Source of the DNA: Saprospira grandis DSM 2844
Lineage (GTDB): Bacteria; Bacteroidota; Bacteroidia; Chitinophagales; Saprospiraceae
DNA: 64,000 bases
Assembly (NCBI RefSeq): GCF_000275825.1
Contig: NZ_JH719942.1
Coordinates: 996,988-1,060,987, forward strand
Reading direction: 5' to 3'
The position numbers and the translations under genes are program-made. Of this stretch, positions 6,382 through 56,856 are shown in pieces. Positions within the stretch are counted from its first letter, which is position 1, and each line of letters begins with the position of its first letter. The notes under the pieces are model-generated. The model was given only the letters and a program-made list of their open reading frames with translations. It made no database searches and was not told where the DNA came from.

Positions 6382-6827
6382 ATAAATGAGTTTTTTTAAT
6401 GAATGAATTGCTTAATTGCCAAGCATTCATCAACTCATTTTTCCATTGTTGGTAGAGCAGAAAATAGGGCCGAGGAGGGCCTCTGGGGCCTTCAGCATCG
6501 AGCATCGCTCTATTTTTCCGCTTCATTTGGCTCAAAAAAAATAGCGAAGCCGAAGAAAGAGGCGCTAGGCCTATTTTCTTTAGCTTCACTATCCTTTGGC
6601 TCCATTGCAGCAGCCTGTTTTCGCTTTTTTGTTCTGTTTTCGCACAACTTAGGCCTTTGGCTTTGGCGGCCACAGCCGTGGGCAATTGGTCCAGACTGCT
6701 TTGCAGGGCCCAGCGCATTTTGCAGGGGGCCAGCAAGAGCAAGCTGCCCAAAAAGAGCAGACCAATATATGTGCGGAGCCTATTCATAGGCACAAACATA
6801 AGGCTTTATTCCTTTCCCTTTTCTTAG

Positions 6828-38900: not shown

Positions 38901-39356
38901 CTGCTCCTGCTTGATGCCTGCCACTCTGGAGAGGTCGATAAGGAGGTAGAAACCGAGAAGAAGTCGGTCAGTAGCTTTGCCCAAAACATCCTCAAAAGAA
39001 GCAAGTCGGGCAGTACCCTGATTCGGCCCAAAACAGGACTCAACAACTCTTTTGCCTATATGAAGGCCCTCTTTTCGGACCTAGAACAGCAGCGGGGAGT
39101 CACGGTTATTTCTGCCGCTGGCGGCTTCGAGCTGGCCTATGAATCCGATGAATGGGGCAACGGCCTCTTTACCTACGCCCTTTTAGAGGGCATCAAAAGC
39201 AAGAAAGCCGACCTCAATAATGATGGCCAAATCCCCATCCTAGAACTGCGGGATTTCCTTAGCCAAAGGGTGCTAGAGCTCAGCCAGGGCCAACAGCAAC
39301 CCACCGCCCGTCAATCCAATGTTTTCAATAATTTTATCCTCTACCGTTATGATTAG
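35925..39356 (+). CDS. Secreted WD40-repeat protein with a C-terminal caspase-like (peptidase C14 / CHAT-type) domain
   Basis: Signal peptide MMRYFLLLLLLWSSGALLAQ. WD40 repeats (GHHSNVRCLAFSEDGRFLATAGDDRSLRIWSM; GHKAAITDVGFSKDGQFLVS; GHNGGINDLAFDPLGKKAYSCSEDGLIKAWD). C-terminal His/Cys dyad context IVFYISSHG … NRLLLLDACHSG, typical of caspase-fold proteases. The track ORF starts at 35742, but those first 61 codons are REP sequence. Confidence 0.8.
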   Translation: MMRYFLLLLLLWSSGALLAQKEDIELVVSQGHHSNVRCLAFSEDGRFLATAGDDRSLRIWSMRLQQEYKVLWGHKAAITDVGFSKDGQFLVSIGSRLLCIWSMPEGKLLHQIEVDAQSKRLQFSETKPGHVMVRLPEGIAWVDLKTGAIDYSPKPFMRNWSNWILGQKTARVIIPERLDSIWAYSLAGQREQLFVGKGSYYKLLLSPNENYLAAYSGSRMAIDVWAYSSGKFIGSIEGLNPVQDFCFDISGERLWIMDLHAECKVYSCPQLQEELVVNKKSWGKEGLGQGDLVQVNIGQQIRPSPNGQFMGLAITRTEVNRKTGKMNDLRGLQLVDAQTGKERGLFKGHFKWITQLGLSPKGDKLLSVNMGKTRGLRSWSIKKGEIERYIHSSQSLSQSQDKKQLALLEFHEKSNPELTVYQLPSFRKLAKKKVDNCSAFALSGDGKKIVALQVDVNLKNPLNNRFYYSIWKLPNYKLEQEIEIESKESALPIFKSLLLDSAGDYLLAAAQNQAYSLELSSQKRTRFALPSSATYWRMLCLHPQQPALLFAVSEVVYNQEKKRVEELSKLLLYNYKTGELIEEVSSPKEGIIQSAAFSPDGQYLLTGQTAYQEVINFDVLLWDWPQKQLLCQFEGHNGGINDLAFDPLGKKAYSCSEDGLIKAWDIEKCALAASFIGYNELDYLIISPENYYKTSRSNTAGLGFRYAGDLYTYDQFDLRFNRPDKVLAPFTKAQRKLNIYTKAWKKRVRRLGFTEEQLERKLQLPELQIVNQLQLPIYVEDSLIQFQILAFDEQEELKKLRIFVNGVPYPQAEGIELSSRAGDSLRQELSIPLGQGPNKIQLSVVNAAGLESAKQSFQLAYQPKEKQASQLYFLGLGVSEFRDSSRNLKYPQKDAQDLGKALAHARKEEGVHQLLLDPNAPLEQLQKSARAFMLQAKINDQIVFYISSHGLLDDSLNYYLALPNSQFEQPQNGSWAYDDMEQLLDGLPCRNRLLLLDACHSGEVDKEVETEKKSVSSFAQNILKRSKSGSTLIRPKTGLNNSFAYMKALFSDLEQQRGVTVISAAGGFELAYESDEWGNGLFTYALLEGIKSKKADLNNDGQIPILELRDFLSQRVLELSQGQQQPTARQSNVFNNFILYRYD

Positions 39357-40724: not shown

Positions 40725-40997
40725 CCTCGGAAGGGGTTACCCTACCCCTCAAGAGGGGTTACCCTACCCCTCAAGAGGGGTTACCCTACCCCTCAAGAGG
40801 GGTCACTCTACCCATCGGAAGGGGTTTCCCTACCCCTCAAGAGGGGTCACTCTACCCCTCGGGAGGGGTCACTCTATCCCTCGGGAGGGGTTACTCTACC
40901 CATCGGGAGGGGCTGCCCTACCCCTCAAGAGGGGTTTCCCTACCCATCGGGAGGGGTTACTCTACCCCTCAGGAGGGGTTACTCTACCCCTCGGGAG
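40725..40997. repeat. Tandem array of ~12 copies of a 22-bp hairpin-forming unit (consensus tacccctcaagaggggttaccc)
   Basis: Direct reading: …gaggggttaccctacccctcaagaggggttaccctacccctcaagaggggttaccctacccctc… with point variants (ggtcactctacccatcgg etc.). Each unit carries gaggggt/acccctc complementary arms. Confidence 0.9.
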
Positions 40998-41341
40998 GAA
41001 AATACTAGCAATAAAGAGGGGGAGATGGATTTAAAGACAATATAAAAACAGTCATTTACTCCTTTACATCACTACAGCTGAGCAACTTTTACAACCTTCT
41101 GACTGATAGCAATGCGCAGGCCCTCAGCTAGAAATAGTCCTTAAAACAACTGCTAACAAGAGCCAAAACTCTATAAAACACAAAAAAATAGCCTATTAAA
41201 GTATTTTTTATTAGTTATAACTTGCATTATAAAATTATTTACCCTATGTTTATAACGCAAATAACGCAAGAGCACATTGCTTTTACTAAAGAGCTCTAGT
41301 TGTTAGACATCTAATTCTTAATCAAATAAATACCTAGTACT

Positions 41342-43260: not shown

Positions 43261-44478
43261 ATGACTAAAAACTACCAATCACTGCTACGGGCAGTAGAAC
43301 GAGAGCGAGAATTTCATAATAAGACAGCTAGGATTACAGGGGCGAACTACAATGTCTTTAGTCTATTGCAATTAGATCGAAAAGAAGATAAACTACATAG
43401 TCCCTTTATAGCGGATTTACTCCATCCTCAGGGCAGTCATCAGCAGGGGACAGTATTCTTAAAGGCCTTTATAAACATGCTCACTCAGAAATTTGAGGAT
43501 CTATCTAAACTAAGCAACTTAAAAGCAGAGCGGACTCGAGTCAATACTGAGGAATTTATAGGCAAAGTGAGAGCAAATGAAGGTGGTCGCATAGATATCT
43601 ATATTACAGATGGGCTACACACTATTGCAATCGAGAATAAAATTGATGCGGACGATCAAGAGAATCAACTATTGCGTTATGCTAATCATTTGAAAGGGAA
43701 AGAGAATACGGCTTTGCTCTACTTAAATCTAAAAGGGAGAGCTCCTTCAGAAAAGAGTACTAAGAGAAAATTAGTAGAAGGTACAGACTACTATGGGCTT
43801 TCTTATCAGAAAGATATTTTAACTTGGTTAGAGGACTGCAAGCGTATTGCAGTAGATCTACCTATTCTTAGAGAATGTTTGAAGCAGTATATTAACACTA
43901 TAAAAGAACTTTGCGGAATGAGCCTAAACGAAGACAAAAAGAAAGAAATAGAAAAGCTTATTAAGCATCATTTTGGGGCCGCATTAGATATTGCCACTCA
44001 TTTTGAAGCAGTTCGGCTTCAAATTATAAATGATTTTAGGATAGACCTTATTGACTACTTAACAGAAAACCTAGATAGTGCCATTTATCGGGTAGAGCCT
44101 TGCTTCGAGATTAACGCTAAGTACTCTAAAATTGTAATTCTGCCGCATAAAGAAAAGCACCCTTATAAACTTTACTTTAACATTGAATCCTTTAGTGCTG
44201 AGGGGTATTGGGGAGGCGACCTATATGTTGGTCTTCTCGCTAACCCTGGTCGTGGAGGCCTCAGTGACCAAGAAAAAAAAATTCTATCGGGAGAAGGCTT
44301 AAAGGGCTGGCTTCCTAAAAAGGAAAACTTAAATGTAAACACCAAAGAAGAAGCAACACTCAAACAGCTTAGTCAAGAAAAAAGTCGTAAGCAGCTAGTA
44401 GAACAACTAGGGCTACAGTGCGTACAGTTTATCCAAGAGCATGAGGACTTGCTAAAAAATTTATACAGGAAGTTTTAG
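43261..44478 (+). CDS. PD-(D/E)xK nuclease-family protein (PDDEXK_4-like N-domain plus uncharacterised C-domain)
   Basis: N-domain …EDKLHSPFIADLLHPQGSHQQGTVFLKAFINML… then GGRIDIYITDGLHTIAIENKIDADDQENQLLRYANHL (D…E-N-K catalytic-core pattern). AT-rich codon usage unlike the flanking genome. Confidence 0.55.
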   Translation: MTKNYQSLLRAVEREREFHNKTARITGANYNVFSLLQLDRKEDKLHSPFIADLLHPQGSHQQGTVFLKAFINMLTQKFEDLSKLSNLKAERTRVNTEEFIGKVRANEGGRIDIYITDGLHTIAIENKIDADDQENQLLRYANHLKGKENTALLYLNLKGRAPSEKSTKRKLVEGTDYYGLSYQKDILTWLEDCKRIAVDLPILRECLKQYINTIKELCGMSLNEDKKKEIEKLIKHHFGAALDIATHFEAVRLQIINDFRIDLIDYLTENLDSAIYRVEPCFEINAKYSKIVILPHKEKHPYKLYFNIESFSAEGYWGGDLYVGLLANPGRGGLSDQEKKILSGEGLKGWLPKKENLNVNTKEEATLKQLSQEKSRKQLVEQLGLQCVQFIQEHEDLLKNLYRKF

Positions 44479-44588
44479 GCTGCGAGGCAGAGGAAGTAAG
44501 CTAGGAAATAAAAAAGCATTATGGATTAGTACTTAAGCTCTAATTAAACGTATCTTACTTCTAATTAAAACACCTAATATAGAAACAA

Positions 44589-46046
44589 ATGATTCGCATA
44601 AATCATATACATATAGATGGGTTTAAAGACTCTGAAGACCAAAAAGATATCCAACTAGCCCGTGGTCCTATTACAGTTATTTATGGAGAGAATGGCTCTG
44701 GTAAAACCACTTTACTTCAACTGCTTTTTGCCTTTCTTAACAAAGATGAACTTACACTCAACCGTCAACAAGTACAAAAAATAGAAATTAACTACACAAT
44801 TGACGGCCTAGAGAAAGTAGCCTCTGCTAAAAACATAAGTACCTGGACAGTAGGTTTTGAATGGAATAACTGGGAAGAGCTCACACAAATCAAGAGTATC
44901 TTTCTAAGCGTTATGAGAAGTTCTAATGAAAGCAAAACAAGAGCAACACACGATAACCAACACTTTATTTTAGGTGATTTTTCGGATGAACGAGACTTAA
45001 GAGAAACGCTCAAAAAACTAGAACAACTACTTTTTGAGGCTAATAAAGAGCAATATCTTGGTGTACTTCATAGCTCTATACGGAAAATAAGATTAGCTAT
45101 AGATGATTTTTATCATAATTACAAAATGGATTTCAAGGGAGCCTCTCCTAAAAAATTACTAGAGATTCTAAATCAATTAGATTTACTGATTAGTATTGCT
45201 TCTAAAAAGGGAAGCCAAGAATTCAGTTCAAAATTGCAAGAATTAAGTAGTAAGCTTCAGCATTTTTGTACCATGAGCGGCTATTCAGATCTTGAACCAA
45301 TTAAGTTTGAGGATGATATGAGCCATATTCCTCACTATAATGTTCATCAACTATCTGCTAACGAAATCAGTAAAATTCTGACTAACTATTATAAAGCAGG
45401 GCAAGAACAAATTAGAGAAAATATCAACTTAGCCTTTTTTGACACTATTGAAAAAGCAATAGAAATAGAGACTGAAAAAAATAGCTTTGATCTTCCTAAG
45501 GATTTTAATACCCGTATTGCTAGACATGCTGACTATATTCTTCAAGCAGTACAAATTCACACATCAAGTCTAGCTGATAAAGTTCGTATGTTCTTAAAGG
45601 AAGGGGAAAATGCTCCTATCCCAGATAGTAAAATATTTAGAGCTCTTCTTCTTGAAGTGCTAAAAAGTGCTGAGCAAAAAAATCTAAAGCTTGAGGCTAT
45701 AGAAAAACTTCAAGAAGTTTTCAATTCCCATTTGTACAAAGGCAAAAAACTAATTATAACAAAAGAACAAGCCTATATCTCTATAAAAGAAAATAGAGGG
45801 CATACACTCCAAGAGTTATCAAGTGGTGAAAAGCAACTACTAAATATATTGACTTTCATTCTTTTATTGAGTAGAGAACGAAAACTCATCCTAATTGATG
45901 AGCCCGAAATCTCTCTTAACATAAAATGGCAGCGCAACTTCATTCCACTCTTGCAAGAGCTTAATCAAGATGCACAAATCATTGTTGCTTCTCATAGCCC
46001 TTCTATTGCGTACAAAAAAACAGAAACACTAGTAGAGTTGCTCTAA
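44589..46046 (+). CDS. ABC/SMC-like (AAA_15/21-type) ATPase, AriA-like
   Basis: Walker A IYGENGSGKTTLLQLLFAF near the N-terminus. Long helical insert. Signature LSSGEKQLLNILTFILL. Walker B KLILIDEPEISLN. H-loop IVASHSPS. Confidence 0.6.
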   Translation: MIRINHIHIDGFKDSEDQKDIQLARGPITVIYGENGSGKTTLLQLLFAFLNKDELTLNRQQVQKIEINYTIDGLEKVASAKNISTWTVGFEWNNWEELTQIKSIFLSVMRSSNESKTRATHDNQHFILGDFSDERDLRETLKKLEQLLFEANKEQYLGVLHSSIRKIRLAIDDFYHNYKMDFKGASPKKLLEILNQLDLLISIASKKGSQEFSSKLQELSSKLQHFCTMSGYSDLEPIKFEDDMSHIPHYNVHQLSANEISKILTNYYKAGQEQIRENINLAFFDTIEKAIEIETEKNSFDLPKDFNTRIARHADYILQAVQIHTSSLADKVRMFLKEGENAPIPDSKIFRALLLEVLKSAEQKNLKLEAIEKLQEVFNSHLYKGKKLIITKEQAYISIKENRGHTLQELSSGEKQLLNILTFILLLSRERKLILIDEPEISLNIKWQRNFIPLLQELNQDAQIIVASHSPSIAYKKTETLVELL

Positions 46047-46058
46047 ACCCTTAGTTTG

Positions 46059-47003
46059 ATGATCTCAAATGATATTCACGAATGTTTAGCTGCTGCAATT
46101 ATGGCTGGCAGTCCCACCATCCTCATAGAAGGAAAAGACGATGAAGAAGTCTATACCAATATTAGCAATGAACTAGGGCTAACATTAGAGTTTCTCCCCA
46201 TAGATTTTGTAGACACAACTGGCTATGGGGTTTTGGGTAATTGTGATCAGCTTGTAGCTAGCCTAAGGGACTTAGACAACAGCTGTAAAGACCCTAAATG
46301 GATCAAATTTATTGGTGGAGTTATAGACCTAGATAGTCGCAGCTTTGCCAATCAAATTAGTAGGCCGCCTAGGAATCTATACATATTAAAGATGTATTCT
46401 ATTGAGTCCTACTTTGTTAATCAGGAGAGCTTTATTGCCGTATTCAATAGTCTCAACTCTGCACCTATTTCCAATGCGCTTAAAGACAGTTACTACAATG
46501 ATTTTAATAGCTTCTTTGCCCCTGTAGAAGAGGAGCTTTTTTGGGTGGCTACAGAGGCGCTACAAAATGTTTGTGGGGCTAATCCTAGTCCTGAAATTAC
46601 ATACGGTGTTGACTTTAGTTTTAAAGGCTATATGCAAGCGCCTTCAGTCAACCCTAAGCGGCAGATAGTTGATCGGATTCAAGCTAAAAAGGAAGCTTTA
46701 AGAAGTTGGTTAAACAATGCTTTTAGTACTGCCGTTATACAAAAACAGCTCATCATTAAGGGGAAATGGTGGCTATCCGTTTTTTTAGATATTATTGTTG
46801 AATATGCTAAAAAGCTAGAAGCAGACTGCAGTTTCGCCCCTTCTGGTCCTTGTCGCTATTGTGCTATAGAAGATAAAGGTAACTGTCAATTCAAACTCAA
46901 AGTTAAAAGTCCAACGCCAGCGGCACTTAAGGCAATGGCCTATCAGACCTCCGTATCTGATCAAGATCCTGGGCTCTGCAATTTTCTGGAGTTGTTTAAT
47001 TAA
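46059..47003 (+). CDS. Small TOPRIM-like protein (DUF4435/AriB-like) coupled to the upstream ATPase
   Basis: PTILIEGKDDEEVY (TOPRIM Glu in an hEG motif) and, ~65 aa later, IGGVIDLDS (DxD). 12-bp gap from the upstream ATPase. The track ORF begins at TTG 46056; ATG 46059 preferred. Confidence 0.5.
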   Translation: MISNDIHECLAAAIMAGSPTILIEGKDDEEVYTNISNELGLTLEFLPIDFVDTTGYGVLGNCDQLVASLRDLDNSCKDPKWIKFIGGVIDLDSRSFANQISRPPRNLYILKMYSIESYFVNQESFIAVFNSLNSAPISNALKDSYYNDFNSFFAPVEEELFWVATEALQNVCGANPSPEITYGVDFSFKGYMQAPSVNPKRQIVDRIQAKKEALRSWLNNAFSTAVIQKQLIIKGKWWLSVFLDIIVEYAKKLEADCSFAPSGPCRYCAIEDKGNCQFKLKVKSPTPAALKAMAYQTSVSDQDPGLCNFLELFN

Positions 47004-47049
47004 AAAGCAAAGCCGCCAGCTTATTTATATAAGCTAACGACTTTATACC

Positions 47050-47562
47050 CTACTCCAAATTCCACCAAAGCTTCCCCCCTACTCCCCCATCCGCTCCAAT
47101 TTCTAGCTCCCAAATACTACCCAAAGGCGTATGGCAACCATAGGGACAAGTATAGGGGTAGTCGAGTAGCTCTTTCTTGGGGTCCAAATACTCCAAAATC
47201 ATATTGATGGGCCCACAATGGCTAAAGATGACCGCGGGCCGAGCCCACAACTGCTCCTCCTCCCCCCGATACCAATCCTGCACTCTTTGTTCTAATGACT
47301 CATGCGGCTCTATTTCTTTCTCTCTTTCTCTTAATGCCTGCACTATCTTCGGCTGCAAAGCTGGCACAAGCTGGGCATAGGGCGCATAGGTTTGCCCTAC
47401 CCGCAAATAATCGCTACAATATACGGCCTGAATATCTTTCTTTGCCAAATATTGGGCTATGGCTAGGGCTTGCTTTTGTCCTTTTCTGCCCAAGGCTGGC
47501 CCCGGAAAACCCCGATATTCTTTGGGAGCAGGCTGGGCGTGACGCACTAAATAAAGCTTCAT
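47050..47562 (-). CDS. Histidine phosphatase superfamily protein (phosphoglycerate-mutase-like / SixA-type)
   Basis: MKLYLVRHAQPAP… with the RHA/RHG catalytic His motif at the N-terminus. 170 aa. Last gene of a five-gene minus-strand operon. Confidence 0.65.
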   Translation of the reverse strand: MKLYLVRHAQPAPKEYRGFPGPALGRKGQKQALAIAQYLAKKDIQAVYCSDYLRVGQTYAPYAQLVPALQPKIVQALREREKEIEPHESLEQRVQDWYRGEEEQLWARPAVIFSHCGPINMILEYLDPKKELLDYPYTCPYGCHTPLGSIWELEIGADGGVGGKLWWNLE

Positions 47563-48254
47563 ATTTTATGTTGGCAGTCTCCTTTTTCGTTAATAATTTC
47601 ATGCTCCCCCGCTTGGTTCTGCACCAATGCAAAGCCATTGTAAAAGGGCTCTAGCTGCAAAAACCGACGATTATATACGGGCCGCCCCGCCAAATCGATA
47701 TGCAACCAACCCGCCTCATCTTTGGCCCGAGCAAATCCTTTGTGAAAAACATCTAACTCTAGATAGCGATAAGGATGTAAGGCCCTGCCCTGAGAATCAA
47801 TATGCAAACAATAACCATCGGCCTGACGAACACAGGCGTAGCCATCTCTAAAGTCGCCCGCATAGCAATAACGCGCCCCATAAAGCGGATCTCCCTGCAG
47901 ATCAATATGGAAGTATTCGCCGCCTTTTCGGACCGTGCAAATGTCTTGCTGATAGTTGCCACACCAGTCATAACGCTCCCCATAAATGGCATGTCCTTTT
48001 GTGTCTATATGAAACTGCCCTTGCTCAGAACAGACCGCCGCCCGATCACAATAATAACCAAAGGTCCGCAAATACCGCTGAGGGTATATAGCCACTCCAG
48101 TTGTATCAATATGATAACTACCACTATGATCTTCTACAGGCGCCAAACCCGGCGCATGAAACTTTAATACCGACTTAAAAGGGCCAAAAATAGCCCGCTC
48201 TTCCAAGCAAAATCCATTGCCCTCCGCATTGACTTTTATGTTTTTCCAATTCAT
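47559..48254 (-). CDS. WG-repeat-containing protein
   Basis: Five ~38-aa repeats of the form W/F/Y-x-HID-x-x-G-x-x-(V/I/L)Y-x-x-RY…F-x-x-G-(F/Y)A-x-V (e.g. WLHIDLAGRPVYNRRFLQLEPFYNGFALVQNQAG). 4-bp overlaps with both neighbours. Confidence 0.5.
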   Translation of the reverse strand: MNWKNIKVNAEGNGFCLEERAIFGPFKSVLKFHAPGLAPVEDHSGSYHIDTTGVAIYPQRYLRTFGYYCDRAAVCSEQGQFHIDTKGHAIYGERYDWCGNYQQDICTVRKGGEYFHIDLQGDPLYGARYCYAGDFRDGYACVRQADGYCLHIDSQGRALHPYRYLELDVFHKGFARAKDEAGWLHIDLAGRPVYNRRFLQLEPFYNGFALVQNQAGEHEIINEKGDCQHKI

Positions 48255-49222
48255 CTTTTCTCAAATATCAATATAGATTGTAAATCATTTAAGGGGCGCT
48301 TTTCTAAATAAATAAAGCCTGTTTGCTCCGCCAATTTCCGATAGGCCGCTAAGGTCCGCTCTTGGCTCTTACAAATGGCCAACATGTTCAAACTAAGCAG
48401 CTCGGCCCCATCGGCTAGCTGCTCTTTTAGGATTTCTAAGATATACAAGCGCCCTCCTTTTGGCAAGGCGGCATAAACGTTTTCCAATATTTTCAAGGCC
48501 GCTTCATCTGGCCAATCATGTAGTACTCTAGCCAGAAAAATATGCTCGGCGACTTGGGGAATAGGCGCAAAAAAATCTACAGGAATAGGCCGAAAAGGCA
48601 AGTCTCCCGCTGGCAATAAAGCCAATACCTTGGGCTTGTCTAATAAATAAAATGTAGGCCCAGGATAAACTCTCGCCAAGTCCTTGAGCAAAGCCCCCAA
48701 ACCGCCGCCAAGGTCCATTACAGCTTTGGCTTCCGACAAATCTAATTGCTCAGCCAAATTTGCATAATCATCCCGCGCATACTCATTCATGGCCAAATGA
48801 TACACCCGATTGCTCTCGGGATGCTCATCCAAATAATCAAAAAAAGGCTGCCCGTAAATATGGTCAAAGGCAGGTTTGTCTTCTAAAACACTATAGGCCA
48901 AATGCTGCCAAGCCCGCAAATGCTCCTCCCCCCAAAGCAAACAAGCATACTTCAAACTTTTAGGATGTTCCTCCGCCAGCTGCGCCCCTTTTTTAGCCAA
49001 AATATACTGCCCATTTTCTTCTGTTAAGGCCTCCAATTGCTCCAATGCCGCCAATAATAACTGCAAACTTGCCCGCTTGGCCCCTAGCTTTTCGGCCAAA
49101 TTGGCCAAACTAAGCGGCCCCTCCCAAAGCAGATCAAATACCCCCAACTGACAGGCGGTCCGCAAGGGCAAATAATGCCAATAACTGCTAAAACTATTCT
49201 TCAACTCCTGACTAATACTCAT
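48251..49222 (-). CDS. Class I SAM-dependent O-methyltransferase (dimerisation domain plus MTase domain)
   Basis: VMDLGGGLGALLKDLARVYPGPTFYLLDKPKV (motif I) and overall plant-type OMT architecture. The track ORF runs to 49294 through a REP copy; start placed at ATG 49220-49222 (MSISQELKN…). Confidence 0.75.
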   Translation of the reverse strand: MSISQELKNSFSSYWHYLPLRTACQLGVFDLLWEGPLSLANLAEKLGAKRASLQLLLAALEQLEALTEENGQYILAKKGAQLAEEHPKSLKYACLLWGEEHLRAWQHLAYSVLEDKPAFDHIYGQPFFDYLDEHPESNRVYHLAMNEYARDDYANLAEQLDLSEAKAVMDLGGGLGALLKDLARVYPGPTFYLLDKPKVLALLPAGDLPFRPIPVDFFAPIPQVAEHIFLARVLHDWPDEAALKILENVYAALPKGGRLYILEILKEQLADGAELLSLNMLAICKSQERTLAAYRKLAEQTGFIYLEKRPLNDLQSILIFEKR

Positions 49223-49246
49223 CTTTTTCTGTTCTACATGATTTGA

Positions 49247-49372
49247 TTTTGGGGCCTCCTGCCTACGGCAGGCGCTACGCTTTGGGGCTCGCAAGTCTGC
49301 TCGGCCCTTCGGCGGCTTTGCCGCCTCGGTCTGGCCTAACGGCCACCCCGCCGCATCGCTAGGCCAAAAAAG
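49247..49372. repeat. REP/MITE-like element inserted inside the operon between the radical SAM and OMT genes
   Basis: ttttggggcctcctgcctacggcaggcgctacgctttggggctcgcaagtctgctcggcccttcggcgg … ggccaccccgccgcatcgctaggcc. Confidence 0.8.
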
Positions 49373-49403
49373 GCCTGCGGCTGAGCTAGAGAGCTAAAAC
49401 CGC

Positions 49404-50429
49404 CTACTTCCGCATCGTACAGCCTTGGCAAAGGGGCTTTTCCTTATAATTTTCAACCAACTCTAAGTAGGCTTTGCTTTGCAGGACCTCCACAAGGCTG
49501 CGGTCCTGAATATTACCAAAGTCGCCTAAGGCTTGCCGCTGCTCATCAGGGGCGCAGCAAGGCGATATTTTCCCCGTGGCCGAGACCCAAAGTTCTTTAT
49601 TTAGAAACGGACAGTCGTAGTCTTCCGGGACCGCCTCTGCTGCGCCTGCAGTTAGCGGGACAATATTTTCTAGTAAAACAGCTTTGCCATTGGGCAGTAA
49701 ATATTGGTCTCTAGCCGCATAGGCCTCTTCTACATATTGGTTCCATTGGGCCATGCTTTGGGCATCCTTACGGAAAGATAAGTCCTTGATTTCATCAAAA
49801 TGATCCCACAACTGATGCCCTTTTACCCGATCTACGCCAAGACTAGCCGCTAGCTTAATAATATCGGCCAGTTCCTGCATATTGTTTTGCATAAAGGTCA
49901 ATTGGAAACTTACTCGGCAATAATAGCCCGTTTCTGCAAAATGCTGGTCTCGTACAGCCACAAAGCGACGGACATGATCTACACACTGCTCAAAGTTAAT
50001 CCCTGGCATGACTTCCTCGGCTGTTTTGGCGGTGGCCGCATTCCAAGAGATTTTAATGTCTGTCGTTTGTGGTACAATCAGTTTGGCCCAAACTTCTACG
50101 GGCTTTTTAGGAAAGGTCCCATTGGTGGTGAGGTTAATTTTGATTCCATACTGCTCACTCAAATCAAAGATTTGCTCAAAGCCTTTATACAGCAAGGGTT
50201 CCCCCATCGTAGAGGGGATAATCTCTTTGACGCCCAAGGCTTGGGCCTGCTCAAAAATCTGGACCACCCACTCAAAAGGCATACGGCGACGCTTGACGCC
50301 CGTGTTTTTATAGAGGTCCGCGATAAATGTACTATAAGGACTATGCTCCTCGCACATAATACAATGCAAGTTGCAATCTTCAGGGTTGGTGTCTATGGTA
50401 ATTCGCCAAAAGTCTTTAGGCTTGGACAT
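49404..50429 (-). CDS. Radical SAM enzyme with C-terminal SPASM/twitch-like auxiliary cluster domain
   Basis: CNLHCIMC (Cx3Cx2C) near the N-terminus. Cys-rich C-terminus CPFLN…GKISPCCAP…CQGCTMRK. Confidence 0.85.
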   Translation of the reverse strand: MSKPKDFWRITIDTNPEDCNLHCIMCEEHSPYSTFIADLYKNTGVKRRRMPFEWVVQIFEQAQALGVKEIIPSTMGEPLLYKGFEQIFDLSEQYGIKINLTTNGTFPKKPVEVWAKLIVPQTTDIKISWNAATAKTAEEVMPGINFEQCVDHVRRFVAVRDQHFAETGYYCRVSFQLTFMQNNMQELADIIKLAASLGVDRVKGHQLWDHFDEIKDLSFRKDAQSMAQWNQYVEEAYAARDQYLLPNGKAVLLENIVPLTAGAAEAVPEDYDCPFLNKELWVSATGKISPCCAPDEQRQALGDFGNIQDRSLVEVLQSKAYLELVENYKEKPLCQGCTMRK

Positions 50430-51705
50430 GCAAAATAGCTTTATACTGTTCTAAAATGGTTGCTGTATGTGTTTTAATGTCAGGGACCTCTCCAGCGGCA
50501 TCATAGAGATAGCCTCTTTGGCCCAATTGCTTCATTTCTTCAGGATGTTGGATGGCCCAGGCCATTTGCTCTTGTAGCGATGGACCATCTCGGTGCTTGA
50601 AGAGCAGGCCATTGACCCCATGCGCTACATATTCCGCCATGCCCCCATAATCTGCCGTGATGACCGGCAAACGGGCCGCCTGCGCCTCATGAATCACCAA
50701 AGGAGAGTTTTCGCCCCAAATAGAAGGGACCACAATGGCATCTACCTGAGCAAAAACCTCTTGGACCAAATCTTCATTGGCATAGCCCCCACAAAATGAA
50801 ATCCGCTGACTTTGCGCTGCGCTCATAGCGCTTAAGGCTTTTTGGCTTTGGCTGTCTTTCCAGCCCCAGATTTTTAACTCTGCCCCTTGCGCTAAGCCCT
50901 TAAAGGCCTCTATGAGTAAGTTGACCCCCTTGGCGGGAATATGCGTGCCGATATACCCAAAGCGAAAAGGTCCAGCTTTACGAGCTGTTTTGGGCGGACT
51001 TAAATAATGCGTCGGAAAGCCATAATCTAGATAACTTACTTTTTCCGCAGGCAAGTTAAAATCATGAATAAAGCGATTCATCAGATAGCGAGAGGGCGCA
51101 ATAAAATGATCGACTAGCCCAATAATTTCTCTTGTTTTCTGCATCCGTCGGCCTATCCATCGGCTCCAATAGGCCAGATCTTCGGCTTCTTCTTCTGGAT
51201 GGCCAGAAAAGAGCATTTTGTAGCAAGACTGTGCACATTTTTGGTCCTCTTGGCCCGTACAGAGCTGATAGCAGTTTTGGCCATCAAAGTTGCGCTGTAG
51301 AAACTGACCTCGGGGACACATCAGCCAGAAATCGTGCAAGGTAAAGAGAATGGGCACCCCCGCTTTTTTAAGCGCTTGGACCAAGCCCAAAGACAGATGA
51401 TTAAGATGGCCAATATGAGCCACATCTGGACGGTCTTGGGCCAAAATAGCCGCCAGCTTTTGGTCCACCTGCGGCTGCCAATAGCCATCTTTGTCTCTGG
51501 GCATATTGACCAAATGAAACTCTAGGCCCTGCTCATCTTTAAAAGAACGCAGCTCAAAATCTGGCCGATAAGGTTCCTCCTCTCGGCTGAAAATGGTGAG
51601 CCGATGCCCCTGCCGATGCAGTTCTTGGCAGAGGCTCTGGCTATAGACTTCGGAGCCTGCACTGTAGCCCGGCGGATAGCCATGGATAATTTTTAAAATG
51701 TGCAT
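50416..51705 (-). CDS. GT-B fold glycosyltransferase (family 4-like)
   Basis: C-terminal GT4 donor-binding region …VVPSIWGENSPLVIHEAQAARLPVITADYGGMAEYVAHGVNGLLF… (E-x7-E-like). First gene of the operon, 14-bp overlap with the rSAM gene. Confidence 0.8.
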   Translation of the reverse strand: MHILKIIHGYPPGYSAGSEVYSQSLCQELHRQGHRLTIFSREEEPYRPDFELRSFKDEQGLEFHLVNMPRDKDGYWQPQVDQKLAAILAQDRPDVAHIGHLNHLSLGLVQALKKAGVPILFTLHDFWLMCPRGQFLQRNFDGQNCYQLCTGQEDQKCAQSCYKMLFSGHPEEEAEDLAYWSRWIGRRMQKTREIIGLVDHFIAPSRYLMNRFIHDFNLPAEKVSYLDYGFPTHYLSPPKTARKAGPFRFGYIGTHIPAKGVNLLIEAFKGLAQGAELKIWGWKDSQSQKALSAMSAAQSQRISFCGGYANEDLVQEVFAQVDAIVVPSIWGENSPLVIHEAQAARLPVITADYGGMAEYVAHGVNGLLFKHRDGPSLQEQMAWAIQHPEEMKQLGQRGYLYDAAGEVPDIKTHTATILEQYKAILHVQA

Positions 51706-51743: not shown

Positions 51744-51784
51744 AGCTCAAAAGGAGGGTTTTGTCTTTGTGCTCCTTTTGAGCT
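51744..51784. promoter_or_regulatory. Perfect 13-bp inverted repeat agctcaaaaggag-N15-ctccttttgagct in the divergent control region
   Basis: Seen directly. Lies 40-80 bp upstream of the GT4 start codon on the minus strand. Could be an operator or a 5'-UTR hairpin. Confidence 0.4.
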
Positions 51785-51943
51785 CCACTTATTGCAGATA
51801 ATCAAAAGGATGTGCCAAAAAAGAAAAACAACCCAAACAGCTAACAATCAATAATTTACAAAAACAAGCTAATTTAAAGCTGCTGTAAAATTTTGGAATC
51901 TATGTATTTTTTTACAGTTTCAGGATAACTTTAGGGCAATACT

Positions 51944-52103
51944 TAGGCGGCGAAGCCGCCGCAAAGGAGCGAAGCGACTGGCCTAGCGATGTGCAGCAGT
52001 GCGGCGCAGCCGCAGACCCAGCAAAAAACTTGTTTTTTTGTGCAGGGCCGAGCGAACAGCGAGCTGCGAAACGTAGCGCCTGCCGAAGGCAGGAGGCCCC
52101 CAA
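51944..52103. repeat. REP/MITE-like element in the divergent promoter region
   Basis: ggcggcgaagccgccgcaaaggagcgaagcgactggcctagcgatgtgcag … gggccgagcgaacagcgagctgcgaaacgtagcgcctgccgaaggcaggaggccccc. Confidence 0.8.
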
Positions 52104-52122
52104 AAAAACCCTTACTTAATTT

Positions 52123-53955
52123 ATGACCATGGCAAAAGAAAACATTTACATCAGTTGGCATTATACGACCCATGGCACTGCATTTTTGCAGCATCAGTTG
52201 GCGGCATTTTGGCGGGGCGAGCTGCAATTATCGGAAAAGCCCTTGTATAAGGAGGGGCTTTGTCAGTTGGAATTGAGCGAGGCTTTTTCGGCAAGTCGGC
52301 AGCCTGGTTTTTTGTTTGACAGGGTCTATTATTTATGTGCCGAGCAGGCTGTTTTGGACCGTTTATCTCTTCGGCGTTTAAGCTATCGAAAGAACATGTA
52401 TGAGGTAGACAAAGCGGTTGCGGAGACGCAGATGCAGGAGGTTTGGAGAGAGGTGATTGCGCAGGATCTTCCGTCTTGGGTAGATGAGATGGCTTATGTA
52501 AAGGCCCATTATTCCAGTCGTTTGGGCGACTTTGAGGGGCAGATTTGGCGAGATATGCAGCATTACCCTATTGACAGCCAGCTAGCATGGTTTAGGCGAA
52601 AATCGCCTGCTGCGCCTTATTATCGTGCTCGTTTTGAGGCCGTTCATTTTAGTCAGGAAGAGCTGCCGAACTTGCGAGATGAGCAGAGCATTTTGGCTGT
52701 TTTGCAAGGCTTTTTCAAAAATATTTTGGCCCATCATGGAGCCGAGGCCAACTACATCATCAATGTCAGTTTGGGCAGTAATGAAACGCAGGTGGCTTGG
52801 TTTGTTCTGGCCGAGGCGGGGCTTTTGCCCCCCAACTGTCGATTTATCAAGGTCTATGATGTTAAGACCAAAGGCAAAGACCCTCGTTTCAAGAATTTCC
52901 AAATTCAGGAGATTCCCAGCCGCCTAATTTCTAGTTTATCGGCCAACTTATATGAGCATGACAACCTACAATCGCCCTTGCGGCGTTTGGCCGACCTTAA
53001 GATGAAGACCTATATAGAGCAAGGTTTTGCCATATTGATTTTGGGCGAAAGAGGAACGGGAAAGTCCAGAATGATTTCGAGATTGGAGCGAGAAAACCGC
53101 AAGGTATTAGCCATTAATTGTGCTTCTTTTGATGATGACAACAAGGCTGAATCGGAGTTTTTTGGACATGCCAAGGGGGCCTATACGGGGGCAGAGCAAG
53201 CCAAAAAGGGCTTATTTGAAGAAGCTCGGGACGGGATTCTCTTCTTTGATGAAGTGCATCATTTGAGTAAGCGGGTACAGGGCAAACTCATGAAAGCCCT
53301 ACAAACCGATGAGAACAACAATTATCGGTTTCGGCCTATGGGAGACAGTCAGGAACAACAAAGTCAGTTTACTGCTGTTTTTGCTAGCAACAAAAGTATT
53401 GAGGAGCTGCGAGAGCTTTTATTGGCCGACTTCTTTGACCGTATCTCTCAGCTCCTCATTGAGCTGCCCCCACTGCGAGAAAGTCGAGATGAAATTGAAA
53501 AAGACTGGGAAACTGTTTGGACGCAACTGCGCTTTGCGCCTAGCTACCCCTGTCCCAAATCTCCAGAGCTCTTCCGATGGCTCAAAAAGCAGCCCTTATG
53601 GGGCAACTTTAGAGATTTGCAAAAGATAGCCATCTACTATAAGGCCTTTTTAGATTTGCCCAAAGAGGCCCAACAACTAGAGGGGGTAGAGCAGCCCCTA
53701 GACTTTGCAAAAAAGGAATTTAAGGCCTATCATGGGCATTTCCCTAAGCAAACTAAGTTGCCCCGAGCCTTTCAAGAACTCTTTGATCTAGAGCTCATTG
53801 CCTCAGAGACAAAAGAAAAGACCTATAAAATTCTGGAGAAGCGCTATAAAAAGGCCTTAATTGCTTGGGTGGAAGAAAACTTTCCCGCTCAACAGGTTTG
53901 GGAGATTTTGGACATGAGCGAAAGTAGCTACTATAAGATGAAAAAAGAGGGCTAA
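52123..53955 (+). CDS. rtcR: RtcR-family sigma-54-dependent transcriptional regulator (CARF-like N-domain, AAA+ sigma54-interaction domain, Fis-type HTH)
   Basis: N-domain NETQVAWFVLAEAGLLPPNCRFIKVY cf. E. coli RtcR THVAQICWFLLAEARYLPARLIQ. AAA+ ILILGERGTGKSRM…VLAINCASF…FFGHAKGAYTGA (GAFTGA-type) …GILFFDEVHHL. C-terminal HTH VWEILDMSESSYYKMKKEG. No REC domain. Confidence 0.8.
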   Translation: MTMAKENIYISWHYTTHGTAFLQHQLAAFWRGELQLSEKPLYKEGLCQLELSEAFSASRQPGFLFDRVYYLCAEQAVLDRLSLRRLSYRKNMYEVDKAVAETQMQEVWREVIAQDLPSWVDEMAYVKAHYSSRLGDFEGQIWRDMQHYPIDSQLAWFRRKSPAAPYYRARFEAVHFSQEELPNLRDEQSILAVLQGFFKNILAHHGAEANYIINVSLGSNETQVAWFVLAEAGLLPPNCRFIKVYDVKTKGKDPRFKNFQIQEIPSRLISSLSANLYEHDNLQSPLRRLADLKMKTYIEQGFAILILGERGTGKSRMISRLERENRKVLAINCASFDDDNKAESEFFGHAKGAYTGAEQAKKGLFEEARDGILFFDEVHHLSKRVQGKLMKALQTDENNNYRFRPMGDSQEQQSQFTAVFASNKSIEELRELLLADFFDRISQLLIELPPLRESRDEIEKDWETVWTQLRFAPSYPCPKSPELFRWLKKQPLWGNFRDLQKIAIYYKAFLDLPKEAQQLEGVEQPLDFAKKEFKAYHGHFPKQTKLPRAFQELFDLELIASETKEKTYKILEKRYKKALIAWVEENFPAQQVWEILDMSESSYYKMKKEG

Positions 53956-56256: not shown

Positions 56257-56287
56257 GGCCGATGGGCTAAAGCCCATTTGCGCTGAG

Positions 56288-56500
56288 CTATTCTGCAGCT
56301 GCAAAACGGCATCTTACAGTTGCGCTAAGCTATTCTGCAACTGCAAAACCGCATATTCCATTTGGAGGAAGCTATTCTGCAACTGCAAAACGGCATCTTA
56401 CAGTTGCGGCAAGCTATTCTGCAGCTGCAAAACGGCATCTTACAGTTGCGGCAAGCTATTCTGAATTTGTGAAACGGCAGTTGTAAACTCGGGGATACTA
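56288..56500. repeat. Tandem array: four near-identical 42-bp units (ctattctgcagctgcaaaacggcatcttacagttgcggcaag) plus a degenerate fifth
   Basis: Units begin at 56288, 56330, 56372 and 56414. Each contains complementary arms gcaactg/cagttgc around a 15-nt loop. The second unit is divergent in its distal half. Confidence 0.9.
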
Positions 56501-56856
56501 TTCGCAATTTGGGGGGACTGTTCATAATTTTGTGTATCCGAATAAAATTTTGGTATTTGGCCAACAGTCGCCTAGGAGCAGAAAGGGCGTAAACAGTCTC
56601 CAAAATGTTAGATAATATCTCATAGCCATGGACTAAAGTCCATGGTTGTGGGGCTATGCAAAGAGCGGGCTAAAGCCCTTGTTTGCTGATAGGGCCTAGG
56701 GAAAGAGAAAATCCCCTCGAATGAGGGGATGGCAATTTTTTAGTTAGCCTAGGGCCTTGGCCCTAGGGTTTCTATAAATTTTATGAGAGGAATATATAGT
56801 AGGCAGCAAAAAGGGCATACACAAAATTTCAAACAGTCTTGCAAAAATTCGTCCTA

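Follow-up and report, generated by a model that had tools for sequence, protein, structure and literature searches.

We analysed a 64,000-nucleotide stretch of the Saprospira grandis DSM 2844 genome (contig NZ_JH719942.1, positions 996,988 to 1,060,987), hereafter the window, focusing on an operon of five genes. These encode a GT4 glycosyltransferase of GT-B type (GT), a radical S-adenosylmethionine (SAM)/SPASM enzyme (rSAM), an O-methyltransferase (OMT), a WG-repeat protein and a short histidine phosphatase. Our preferred reading, to which we assign a probability of roughly 0.5, is that the operon represents one copy of a horizontally mobile, inducible cassette for small-molecule biosynthesis, the product of which would be a conflict metabolite, most likely antiviral, made beside or in place of the products of viperin. 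The product is most likely a modified sugar- or nucleoside-type small molecule, made on demand.

A first-pass annotation of the same DNA had proposed a five-gene operon with these domain identities, and all of them are borne out by intact open reading frames (ORFs) and by Pfam, which supports every domain (Glycos_transf_1/Glyco_transf_4; Radical_SAM and SPASM; Methyltransf_2 and Dimerisation; WG_beta_rep; His_Phos_1), as well as Sigma54_activat in the product of a divergently oriented activator gene. By sequence, the catalytic motifs of four of the enzymes are intact, the rSAM having CNLHCIMC, the GT E-x7-E, the OMT DLGGGLG and the phosphatase RHA...SHCG. None of the five operon proteins was named by NCBIfam at the equivalog level.

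Conservation of the gene set

We scanned one genome per species with the rSAM and found at least 520 relatives among 185,579 species genomes. The best 80 were kept, and their loci were analysed by tblastn and ORF clustering. The nearest to the window were from Saprospiraceae and Aureispira, and the loci as a whole came from Bacteroidota, Planctomycetota (Candidatus Uabimicrobium), Leptospiraceae and one Akkermansia metagenome-assembled genome (MAG). The rSAM was present at all 80 loci, the WG protein at 79 and the GT at 78, the latter being absent only at contig ends. GT and rSAM formed one ORF of ~765 aa at 49 out of 80 loci and were split, as in the window, at 25. A phosphatase of some kind was encoded at 72 loci, and four types occupied this slot: the short His_Phos_1 protein of the window and a Y_phosphatase3 protein, at 7 loci each, a second family of His_Phos_1 proteins (23 loci) and a fusion of a Pol-beta nucleotidyltransferase (NTase) with Y_phosphatase3 (36 loci). 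The OMT was found at 34 out of 80 loci and a NodU/CmcH-type carbamoyltransferase at 10. When the phosphatase was used as the anchor instead, the three homologues with context examined all lay in a GT-rSAM cassette.

Homologues of the rSAM number in the thousands at 60-80% identity, mostly in Bacteroidota. Fusion to a GT occurs in some of them, and fusion to a tyrosine-phosphatase-like domain in one. An exhaustive search of 1.8 billion representatives returned 93 rSAM-family clusters at E < 1e-30, most of them GT-fused. Longer fusions occur in eukaryotes. A giant protein of Chromera velia has the order WG-OMT-(unassigned)-GHMP kinase-GT-rSAM, and a related metagenomic protein reads WG-OMT-NTP_transferase-GalK-like kinase-GT-rSAM. 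The choanoflagellate Stephanoeca encodes a giant carbamoyltransferase-GT-rSAM-WG protein, and the glaucophyte Cyanophora a GT-rSAM protein. OMT-WG fusions were also detected in L084, L086, P0131 and P0134. Because they are fused in the eukaryotic giant proteins, GT, rSAM, WG protein and OMT or carbamoyltransferase can be placed in one pathway.

The first-pass annotation had considered that close orthologues might be scattered in unrelated contexts, making the operon a chance grouping. We looked for this outcome and did not find it: the set is conserved across phyla and fused elsewhere. GT, rSAM, WG protein and phosphatase very probably form one functional unit. On the gene content of these loci, the conserved core is GT-rSAM, WG protein and phosphatase, with OMT or carbamoyltransferase as putative optional tailoring enzymes. 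The distribution of the cassette is patchy and sporadic across phyla and domains, resembling that left by horizontal gene transfer (HGT), and the cassette is most likely horizontally mobile.

Several individual observations accompany this survey. A phage origin was considered and rejected, the cassette being present in only 4 of 2.9 million viral contigs, all with the normal cellular arrangement. A WG homologue with 52% identity (P0331) is annotated as belonging to a Candidatus Hermodarchaeota (Asgard archaeon) MAG, which reflects either a real archaeal transfer or a binning artefact. One locus is rearranged (L168, 1369-9516): GT-rSAM and a second radical SAM gene of 414 aa share one strand, and a sigma-54 activator lies on the other, co-directional with OMT-WG-phosphatase, with a Fic gene in the flank. 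An AT-rich bacterial locus (L084, 4869-15538) contains an enlarged cluster with NTP_transferase, a short-chain dehydrogenase/reductase (SDR) epimerase, a GT-rSAM fusion, a WG-OMT fusion, a PhyH dioxygenase, an ABC exporter and two threonine-aldolase-like pyridoxal-phosphate enzymes, an arrangement that recalls high-carbon nucleoside antibiotic clusters.

Divergent activator and promoter

The activator gene of the window encodes an RtcR-type CARF-like N-terminal domain, an AAA+ domain with a GAYTGA loop and Walker motifs, and a C-terminal helix-turn-helix (HTH). It scores 112 bits with Pfam Sigma54_activat. Against the PADLOC profile RtcR_PspF1--CARF_AAA_HTH (PDLC01994), it scores 277 bits (E 9e-83) over profile positions 80-460 of 468; the first ~200 residues of the protein lie outside this coverage, so that a complete CARF fold is no more than putative. 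This match and the GAFTGA-type loop place it in the RtcR_PspF1 group of CARF-AAA+-HTH sigma-54 activators. It is not an RtcR equivalog, as it reaches 137 bits with the NCBIfam RtcR model (NF038308) against a cutoff of 650 and its target operon contains neither rtcB nor rtcA.

A related activator gene was divergent from the cassette at 45 out of 80 loci, about half of these encoding full-length proteins (~600 aa). The remaining divergent regulators are short AAA+-HTH proteins of 300-360 aa that lack the CARF-like N-terminal domain (L007, L009, L016, L018, L025, L026 and others), some with degenerate GAFTGA or Walker B motifs. This suggests that the sensing input varies between loci. In the reverse direction, a metagenome scan was based solely on the 290 residues that make up the RtcR/CARF-like N-terminal part of the activator. 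This retrieved 73 loci, 47 of them with at least 1.2 kb of upstream sequence, and cassette genes lay divergently upstream of the activator at 41 of these 47, the GT at 40.

A sigma-54-type promoter was predicted upstream of the GT (Table 1). A search for the canonical TGGCAC-N5-TTGC with tight mismatch limits returned nothing useful, and a looser, strand-controlled count was needed. In the regions between activator and operon, GGCAY occurred on the operon strand in 54 out of 64 cases and on the opposite strand in 8 out of 64. It was mostly part of TGGCAY, with a TTG-type -12 box four to five bases further on, and lay ~40-75 nt before the first ORF in compact loci and further upstream in longer intergenic regions. 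Since the relatives of its N-terminal domain face the cassette and a promoter element is shared, the divergent activator is, on comparative grounds, the dedicated regulator of the cassette, working through a conserved sigma-54-type -24/-12 promoter. The earlier proposal of control by an RtcR-like activator is thus upheld.

The predicted 5' leader contains a hairpin with a perfect 13-bp stem. Its whole-region z-score is only -1.6, and hairpins of different sequence occur at the same place in L002-L004. At three Aureispira/Saprospiraceae loci (L003, ~6510-6645; L004; L006), the space between the sigma-54-type promoter and the GT contains a conserved Lys/Asn-rich ORF of ~45-50 aa (consensus M.KKK.SPKDN.SN.KNPNKG..G.NK...GNR.KQL...) and, after it, a hairpin. 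The window has no such ORF and keeps a hairpin. An Rfam scan of the operon and leader gave no match.

Enzymes and likely chemistry

The rSAM has the CX3CX2C cluster motif at C19/C23/C26 and C-terminal cysteines at 273, 291, 292, 334 and 337, which place it in the radical SAM superfamily with a SPASM/twitch domain. Four of the C-terminal cysteines are invariant and C292 nearly so, giving five compared with seven in a full SPASM domain. No NCBIfam equivalog was matched (best 75 bits against a cutoff of 380), which speaks against a housekeeping subfamily, and a sequence search of the PDB gave no match. The structural model resembles both maturases of ribosomally synthesised and post-translationally modified peptides (RiPPs), namely SuiB (23.8), SkfB, PqqE and CteB, and small-molecule enzymes, namely BlsE (22.5, 277 of 327 residues aligned), DesII, MoaA (20.1), viperin (18.9) and BtrN. 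With its cluster motif beginning at residue 19, the protein has no RiPP recognition element (RRE) domain, and its 341-aa model can be aligned nearly end to end with the 327-aa BlsE. The protein is not itself a viperin (24 bits with NF038283 against a cutoff of 180; 33 bits with PADLOC pVip).

The GT belongs to GT4 (Pfam 81 and 92 bits), and the E332-x7-E340 motif is invariant across 39 homologues, as are four cysteines (C130, C149, C157 and C161) of an insertion in the N-terminal acceptor domain. Its nearest solved relatives are sucrose-phosphate synthase (SPS), PimB', MshA, GlgM and BshA; a profile comparison with the PDB gave generic matches to GT4 donor domains, leaving the acceptor unassigned. 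It scores 29.9 bits with the GT4-conflict family PF20706 (cutoff 26; relatives 34-45 bits), the general GT4 models scoring far higher. The OMT is a member of PF00891 (126 and 43 bits) with DLGGGLG and LHDW in its sequence. The phosphatase matches His_Phos_1 with 62 bits over model positions 1-80 and has the LVRHA and SHCG motifs of branch 1; its nearest NCBIfam family is the alpha-ribazole phosphatase CobC (39 bits, under the cutoff).

In the WG protein (Pfam 51.6 bits), the glycine of the canonical WG-x-ID motif is replaced by histidine in most blades (YHID, FHID, LHID): five blades carry aromatic-H-I-D and the sixth HEII. Six histidines are invariant across 56 sequences. The model is a small beta-propeller-like fold of ~6 blades with a predicted local distance difference test score (pLDDT) of 96; a fold search returned generic propellers only, with no close solved relative and no functional lead. 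The invariant histidines suggest a metal- or anion-binding or a catalytic centre.

Accessory genes in relatives encode NTP_transferase, an SDR epimerase, PhyH dioxygenases, an ABC exporter and two threonine-aldolase-like enzymes, as well as dNK/AAA_33- and zeta-toxin-like kinases and an NTase resembling lincosamide nucleotidyltransferases. A search for precursor-like small ORFs within 47-52 kb found none, in agreement with the first-pass annotation, and the upstream ORFs of relatives are heterogeneous or absent. That annotation had left the choice between small-molecule and peptide tailoring. The former part stands and the latter is unlikely: a small-molecule substrate is indicated by the lack of an RRE and of a precursor gene, by the fusions to carbohydrate-activating enzymes and by the obligatory phosphatase, and the BlsE/MoaA-like size of the rSAM points the same way. 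We conclude with good confidence that the cassette encodes a small-molecule pathway. By analogy with the nearest solved GT4 enzymes, and given that a phosphatase is almost always present, we infer that the acceptor is phosphorylated. A nucleotide-like acceptor is preferred because nucleoside/nucleotide-type kinases recur and the nearest family of the phosphatase is alpha-ribazole phosphatase, while a nucleotide-derived substrate is in itself doubtful.

Viperin and defence context

A gene for a prokaryotic viperin (pVip) is present in a fraction of the relatives (cluster c10). It is genuine, with 288 bits for NF038283 (cutoff 180) and 280 bits for PADLOC pVip. It lies between the promoter and the GT at 8 out of 80 rSAM-anchored loci and at 14 out of 47 activator-anchored loci (10-30%), and in Ca. 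Uabimicrobium it is accompanied by a dTMP-kinase-like gene. The Flavobacterium lacus locus L063 likewise encodes a pVip. The first operon position is often taken by an ORF of ~100 aa, from one of three families (c7, c11 and c18; loci L009-L081 and L092-L161), between the promoter and pVip or the GT. Family c18 has a weak match to the Pfam family DUF4258 (RelE-like), and hhalign comparisons among the three revealed no clear relationship. HicA and RelE RNase genes have been reported to adjoin pVips (PMC10865869), and the ~100-aa ORFs may be the solitary RNase toxins described there.

Several copies of the cassette also have defence genes in their flanks. In the window these are PDC-S26 and the PARIS-like genes; elsewhere they are PglZ/SNF2/AAA_15-DUF3696, BREX PglZ/BrxL, McrBC and MoxR-VWA. 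The association with pVip and with defence loci is strong and had not been expected. Apart from this, the surroundings show no conservation, the 107 neighbours having 149 Pfam families between them. In PADLOC-DB v2, the rSAM and OMT gave weak generic matches only, and no known anti-phage system was matched.

CARF-class regulators are used in antiviral signalling and RNA-damage sensing. A conflict role is favoured because viperin is co-operonic, RNase-toxin-like ORFs occur, the regulator is of the CARF class, defence genes lie in the flanks and the distribution is patchy. We consider such a role for the cassette a tentative assignment, its chances a little short of even on this genomic context.

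Proposed mechanism and alternative explanations

In the mechanism we envisage, a stress or infection signal would be sensed by the RtcR-like CARF domain and turn transcription on. The GT4 enzyme would join a common nucleoside diphosphate (NDP)-sugar to a phosphorylated acceptor, with a nucleotide or nucleoside phosphate favoured and a sugar or cyclitol phosphate as the alternative. The physically coupled rSAM could then carry out a radical transformation of the glycoside, such as a dehydration, decarboxylation, oxidation or C-C cyclisation (compare BlsE, DesII, MoaA and viperin). The phosphatase would strip the phosphate and the OMT cap a hydroxyl, with the His-lined WG propeller as an obligatory partner, substrate-binding or catalytic, working next to the OMT. 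A bolder version of this proposal is that the cassette constitutes a previously unrecognised innate-immunity pathway common to bacteria and eukaryotes (Chromera, choanoflagellates and glaucophytes), triggered through CARF and making a new glycosylated, radically rearranged nucleoside-type antiviral that complements or replaces the 3'-deoxy-3',4'-didehydronucleoside triphosphates (ddhNTPs) of viperin; we regard this version as possible and on balance doubtful.

A number of observations weigh against the antiviral proposal. Most loci, the window included, have no viperin. The GT, WG protein and phosphatase gave no match in PADLOC-DB v2. In a rough count made without a matched control, defence-type genes made up only ~10% of the immediate neighbours, and housekeeping genes were numerous. 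An ordinary secreted or metabolic product would be an equally good explanation for the ABC exporter of one relative and for the sugar-salvage fusions of eukaryotes. The likeness of the GT to phosphate-acceptor enzymes resides mainly in the donor domain and supports the acceptor weakly. In the window promoter, the -24 box is perfect and the -12 box is imperfect or shifted by 1 nt. Finally, the sequence does not allow the product to be predicted, as the first-pass annotation had already held.

The cassette might instead make an ordinary, non-conflict metabolite, such as a stress-protective glycoside (compatible-solute-like) or a cofactor- or pterin-like glycoside, induced under stress through the sigma-54 activator. 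The GT4 relatives SPS, MshA, BshA, GlgM and tetrahydrobiopterin glucosyltransferase fit this idea, as do the obligatory phosphatase (compare the glycosyl-phosphate synthase and phosphatase used for sucrose, mycothiol and glucosylglycerate), the sugar kinase and nucleotidyltransferase within the eukaryotic fusions and the many housekeeping genes in the flanks. We nevertheless judge it unlikely, given the sporadic, HGT-like distribution, the presence of viperin and RNase-toxin-like small ORFs in the same operon, the CARF-type regulator, the recurrence of defence neighbours, and a radical SAM step, OMT/carbamoyltransferase and NTase-phosphatase that would be unusual in osmolyte pathways. It is less likely again that the product is a secreted nucleoside- or aminoglycoside-type antibiotic or allelochemical aimed at competitors or prey rather than phage. 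Such a product would accord with the structural kinship of the rSAM to BlsE (blasticidin), DesII and BtrN, with the relatives that encode an ABC exporter, PhyH dioxygenase and threonine-aldolase-like enzymes, with tailoring by carbamoyltransferase and OMT and with the lincosamide-type NTase. However, the window and most Bacteroidota loci encode no exporter, and the partners to which the cassette is tightly coupled, a CARF activator and viperin, both work intracellularly.

An RNA repair or modification module, in which the phosphatase heals RNA ends, the OMT caps ribose and GT-rSAM modifies tRNA or rRNA against ribonuclease toxins, would account for the RtcR-like regulator, the fusions of NTase and protein-tyrosine-phosphatase-type phosphatase, and the RNase-toxin-like small ORFs that come first in the operon in relatives, with HicA/RelE beside pVips (PMC10865869). 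This is improbable, since RtcB, RtcA, ligase and Hen1-type domains are all missing, the OMT belongs to PF00891, a small-molecule class, and the fusions to sugar kinase and NDP-sugar enzymes, together with the exporter, point to a free metabolite. RiPP-type maturation, with the rSAM/SPASM enzyme crosslinking a ribosomal peptide or the WG protein and GT and OMT decorating it, is very improbable: no small ORF is present in the window, the upstream ORFs of relatives belong to three families without clear relatedness or are absent, no RRE was found, the rSAM is fused to GT and sugar-activating enzymes, and phosphatases are obligatory. Chance juxtaposition, or a cell-surface polysaccharide locus, is scarcely credible. 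GT4 enzymes are indeed common in polysaccharide loci, but gene order and fusions are conserved, and none of the loci examined showed a recognisable flippase, polymerase or undecaprenyl-phosphate transferase within the cassette.

Operon layout and other features of the window

The five intact minus-strand genes run head to tail from the sigma-54-type promoter to a strong terminator in the ORF listing (Table 1). The first-pass annotation had described overlaps of 4 to 14 bp, interrupted by a copy of a repetitive extragenic palindromic (REP) element between the rSAM and OMT genes. We confirmed three overlaps, of 14 bp (GT/rSAM), 4 bp (OMT/WG) and 4 bp (WG/phosphatase), and a gap of 109-181 nt at the rSAM-OMT junction, occupied by one REP-like copy. 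The proposal of a translationally coupled unit is supported. This copy belongs to a composite GC-rich element of ~150-170 nt, resembling REP elements or miniature inverted-repeat transposable elements (MITEs), which occurs in both orientations in intergenic gaps across the window, with at least 12 copies. The element produces spurious N-terminal ORF extensions, such as the one that begins at the TTG start of the OMT. Because this extension falls within the repeat, we doubt it, and the ATG at 49222 is the likely OMT start.

Table 1. Features of the operon and its surroundings (positions within the window)
Feature	Position	Strand	Details
Short histidine phosphatase, branch 1	47050-47562	-	170 aa
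WG-repeat protein	47559-48254	-	231 aa
OMT, class I SAM-dependent, PF00891 type	48251-49222	-	323 aa from ATG; also readable as a longer TTG ORF, 48251-49294
rSAM (radical SAM/SPASM enzyme)	49404-50429	-	341 aa
GT4 (GT-B) glycosyltransferase	50416-51705	-	429 aa
Divergent sigma-54 activator gene	52123-53955	+	610 aa
Sigma-54-type promoter (predicted)	51802-51817	-	TGGCAC, then ATCCT, then TTTGA; 97-112 nt upstream of GT start
5' leader hairpin	51744-51784	-	13-bp perfect stem, GAGCUCAAAAGGAG...CUCCUUUUGAGCU
Intrinsic terminator 3' of phosphatase	47008-47045	-	17-bp stem, then CTTTTTAATT
Repeat copy in rSAM-OMT gap	~49243-49400		families D3, D13, D17, D18, I14, I24
Repeat copy between activator gene and operon promoter	~51950-52110		families D8, D11, I21
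Repeat sites (examples)	5045, 8261, 9086, 19160, 23855, 26699, 33255, 39363, 42041, 49243, 51950, 56120, 61950		
AT-rich islet	43261-47003 (43.2-47.0 kb)		GC 0.31-0.41; between YebC-like gene and operon terminator

The operon had been said to lie beside an AT-rich islet, and the islet is real. It encodes a PD-(D/E)XK_4 protein that matches the PADLOC candidate system PDC-S26 (389 bits), as well as an AriA-like ABC/AAA ATPase and a DUF4435/AriB-like protein, which together form a PARIS-type pair. Elsewhere in the window, tandem repeats were found at 40725-40998 (22/44 nt, 12.5 copies, within a 106-aa ORF of doubtful reality) and at 56286-56507 (42/84 nt, ~4 copies). Inspection by eye of a 1204-aa ORF (35742-39356) suggested WD40-like repeats and, after them, a His/Cys region of caspase-like type (SSHGLL…DACHSGE).

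Comparison with known systems

A full-text search of the literature found no account of such a GT4-rSAM/WG/phosphatase cassette, nor of an association with viperin or with a CARF activator, an earlier mention being possible; the cassette is absent from the eLife 2020 paper on conflict systems, the mBio 2024 paper on HicA and pVip and the bioRxiv preprint on viperin evolution. It is widespread and apparently undescribed, a candidate new chemical defence pathway on its genomic context, with a realistic chance of being categorically new. If our reading is right, it would add to viperin a second multi-enzyme route by which antiviral or antibiotic small molecules are made, present in at least 520 bacterial species and in giant-protein fusions of several eukaryotic lineages. 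It would also entail a new kind of radical SAM chemistry, acting on a glycoside, and a new function for the WG propeller with its lining of histidines, and it would provide an example of a CARF sensor that controls immunity by sigma-54 transcription rather than by nuclease activation. Even under the least exciting reading, the GT4-rSAM fusion defines a large, coherent and uncharacterised enzyme family with clear experimental handles.

The cassette shares features with several known systems. It resembles viperin-type chemical defence, the RtcR regulon, the BlsD/BlsE step and the GT4 synthase/phosphatase pairs in how it would work, but it belongs to none of these four, a defining feature being absent each time. 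With the rSAM/SPASM cassettes of RiPP pathways it has in common the SPASM-type auxiliary cysteine motifs and the overall fold of the rSAM, but it lacks a precursor, RRE, protease and exporter, and its fusion partners are carbohydrate enzymes. In the pairs SPS/SPP, MshA/MshA2 and GpgS/GpgP, as proposed for the cassette, a retaining GT-B enzyme uses a phosphorylated acceptor and a dedicated phosphatase acts next, GpgP being of the histidine phosphatase type. A radical SAM partner, a WG propeller and an inducible CARF regulator are all lacking from these pathways. In the biosynthesis of blasticidin S, the glycosyltransferase BlsD makes cytosylglucuronate, on which the radical SAM decarboxylase BlsE then acts. 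Sequence similarity to that pair is negligible (21 bits with TIGR04466, against 400), the GT4 enzyme is not BlsD-like and no other bls-type genes are present.

The regulatory arrangement resembles the RtcR-RtcBA regulon, in which a CARF-AAA+-HTH sigma-54 activator is also divergent from its target operon and acts at a -24/-12 promoter. It differs in that the targets are biosynthetic rather than RtcB/RtcA, the N-terminal half of the activator is divergent, and about half of the cassette loci have a short activator-like protein without the CARF part. In comparison with pVip chemical defence, which may or may not include an associated nucleotide kinase, the rSAM of the cassette carries a SPASM domain and is obligatorily paired with a GT4 enzyme, a WG propeller and a phosphatase, and the window itself has no pVip. 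In both cases, a radical SAM enzyme makes, or in the cassette would make, a small antiviral molecule, and both are found in bacteria and eukaryotes. Where pVip and the cassette are co-operonic, they share a regulator and a promoter.

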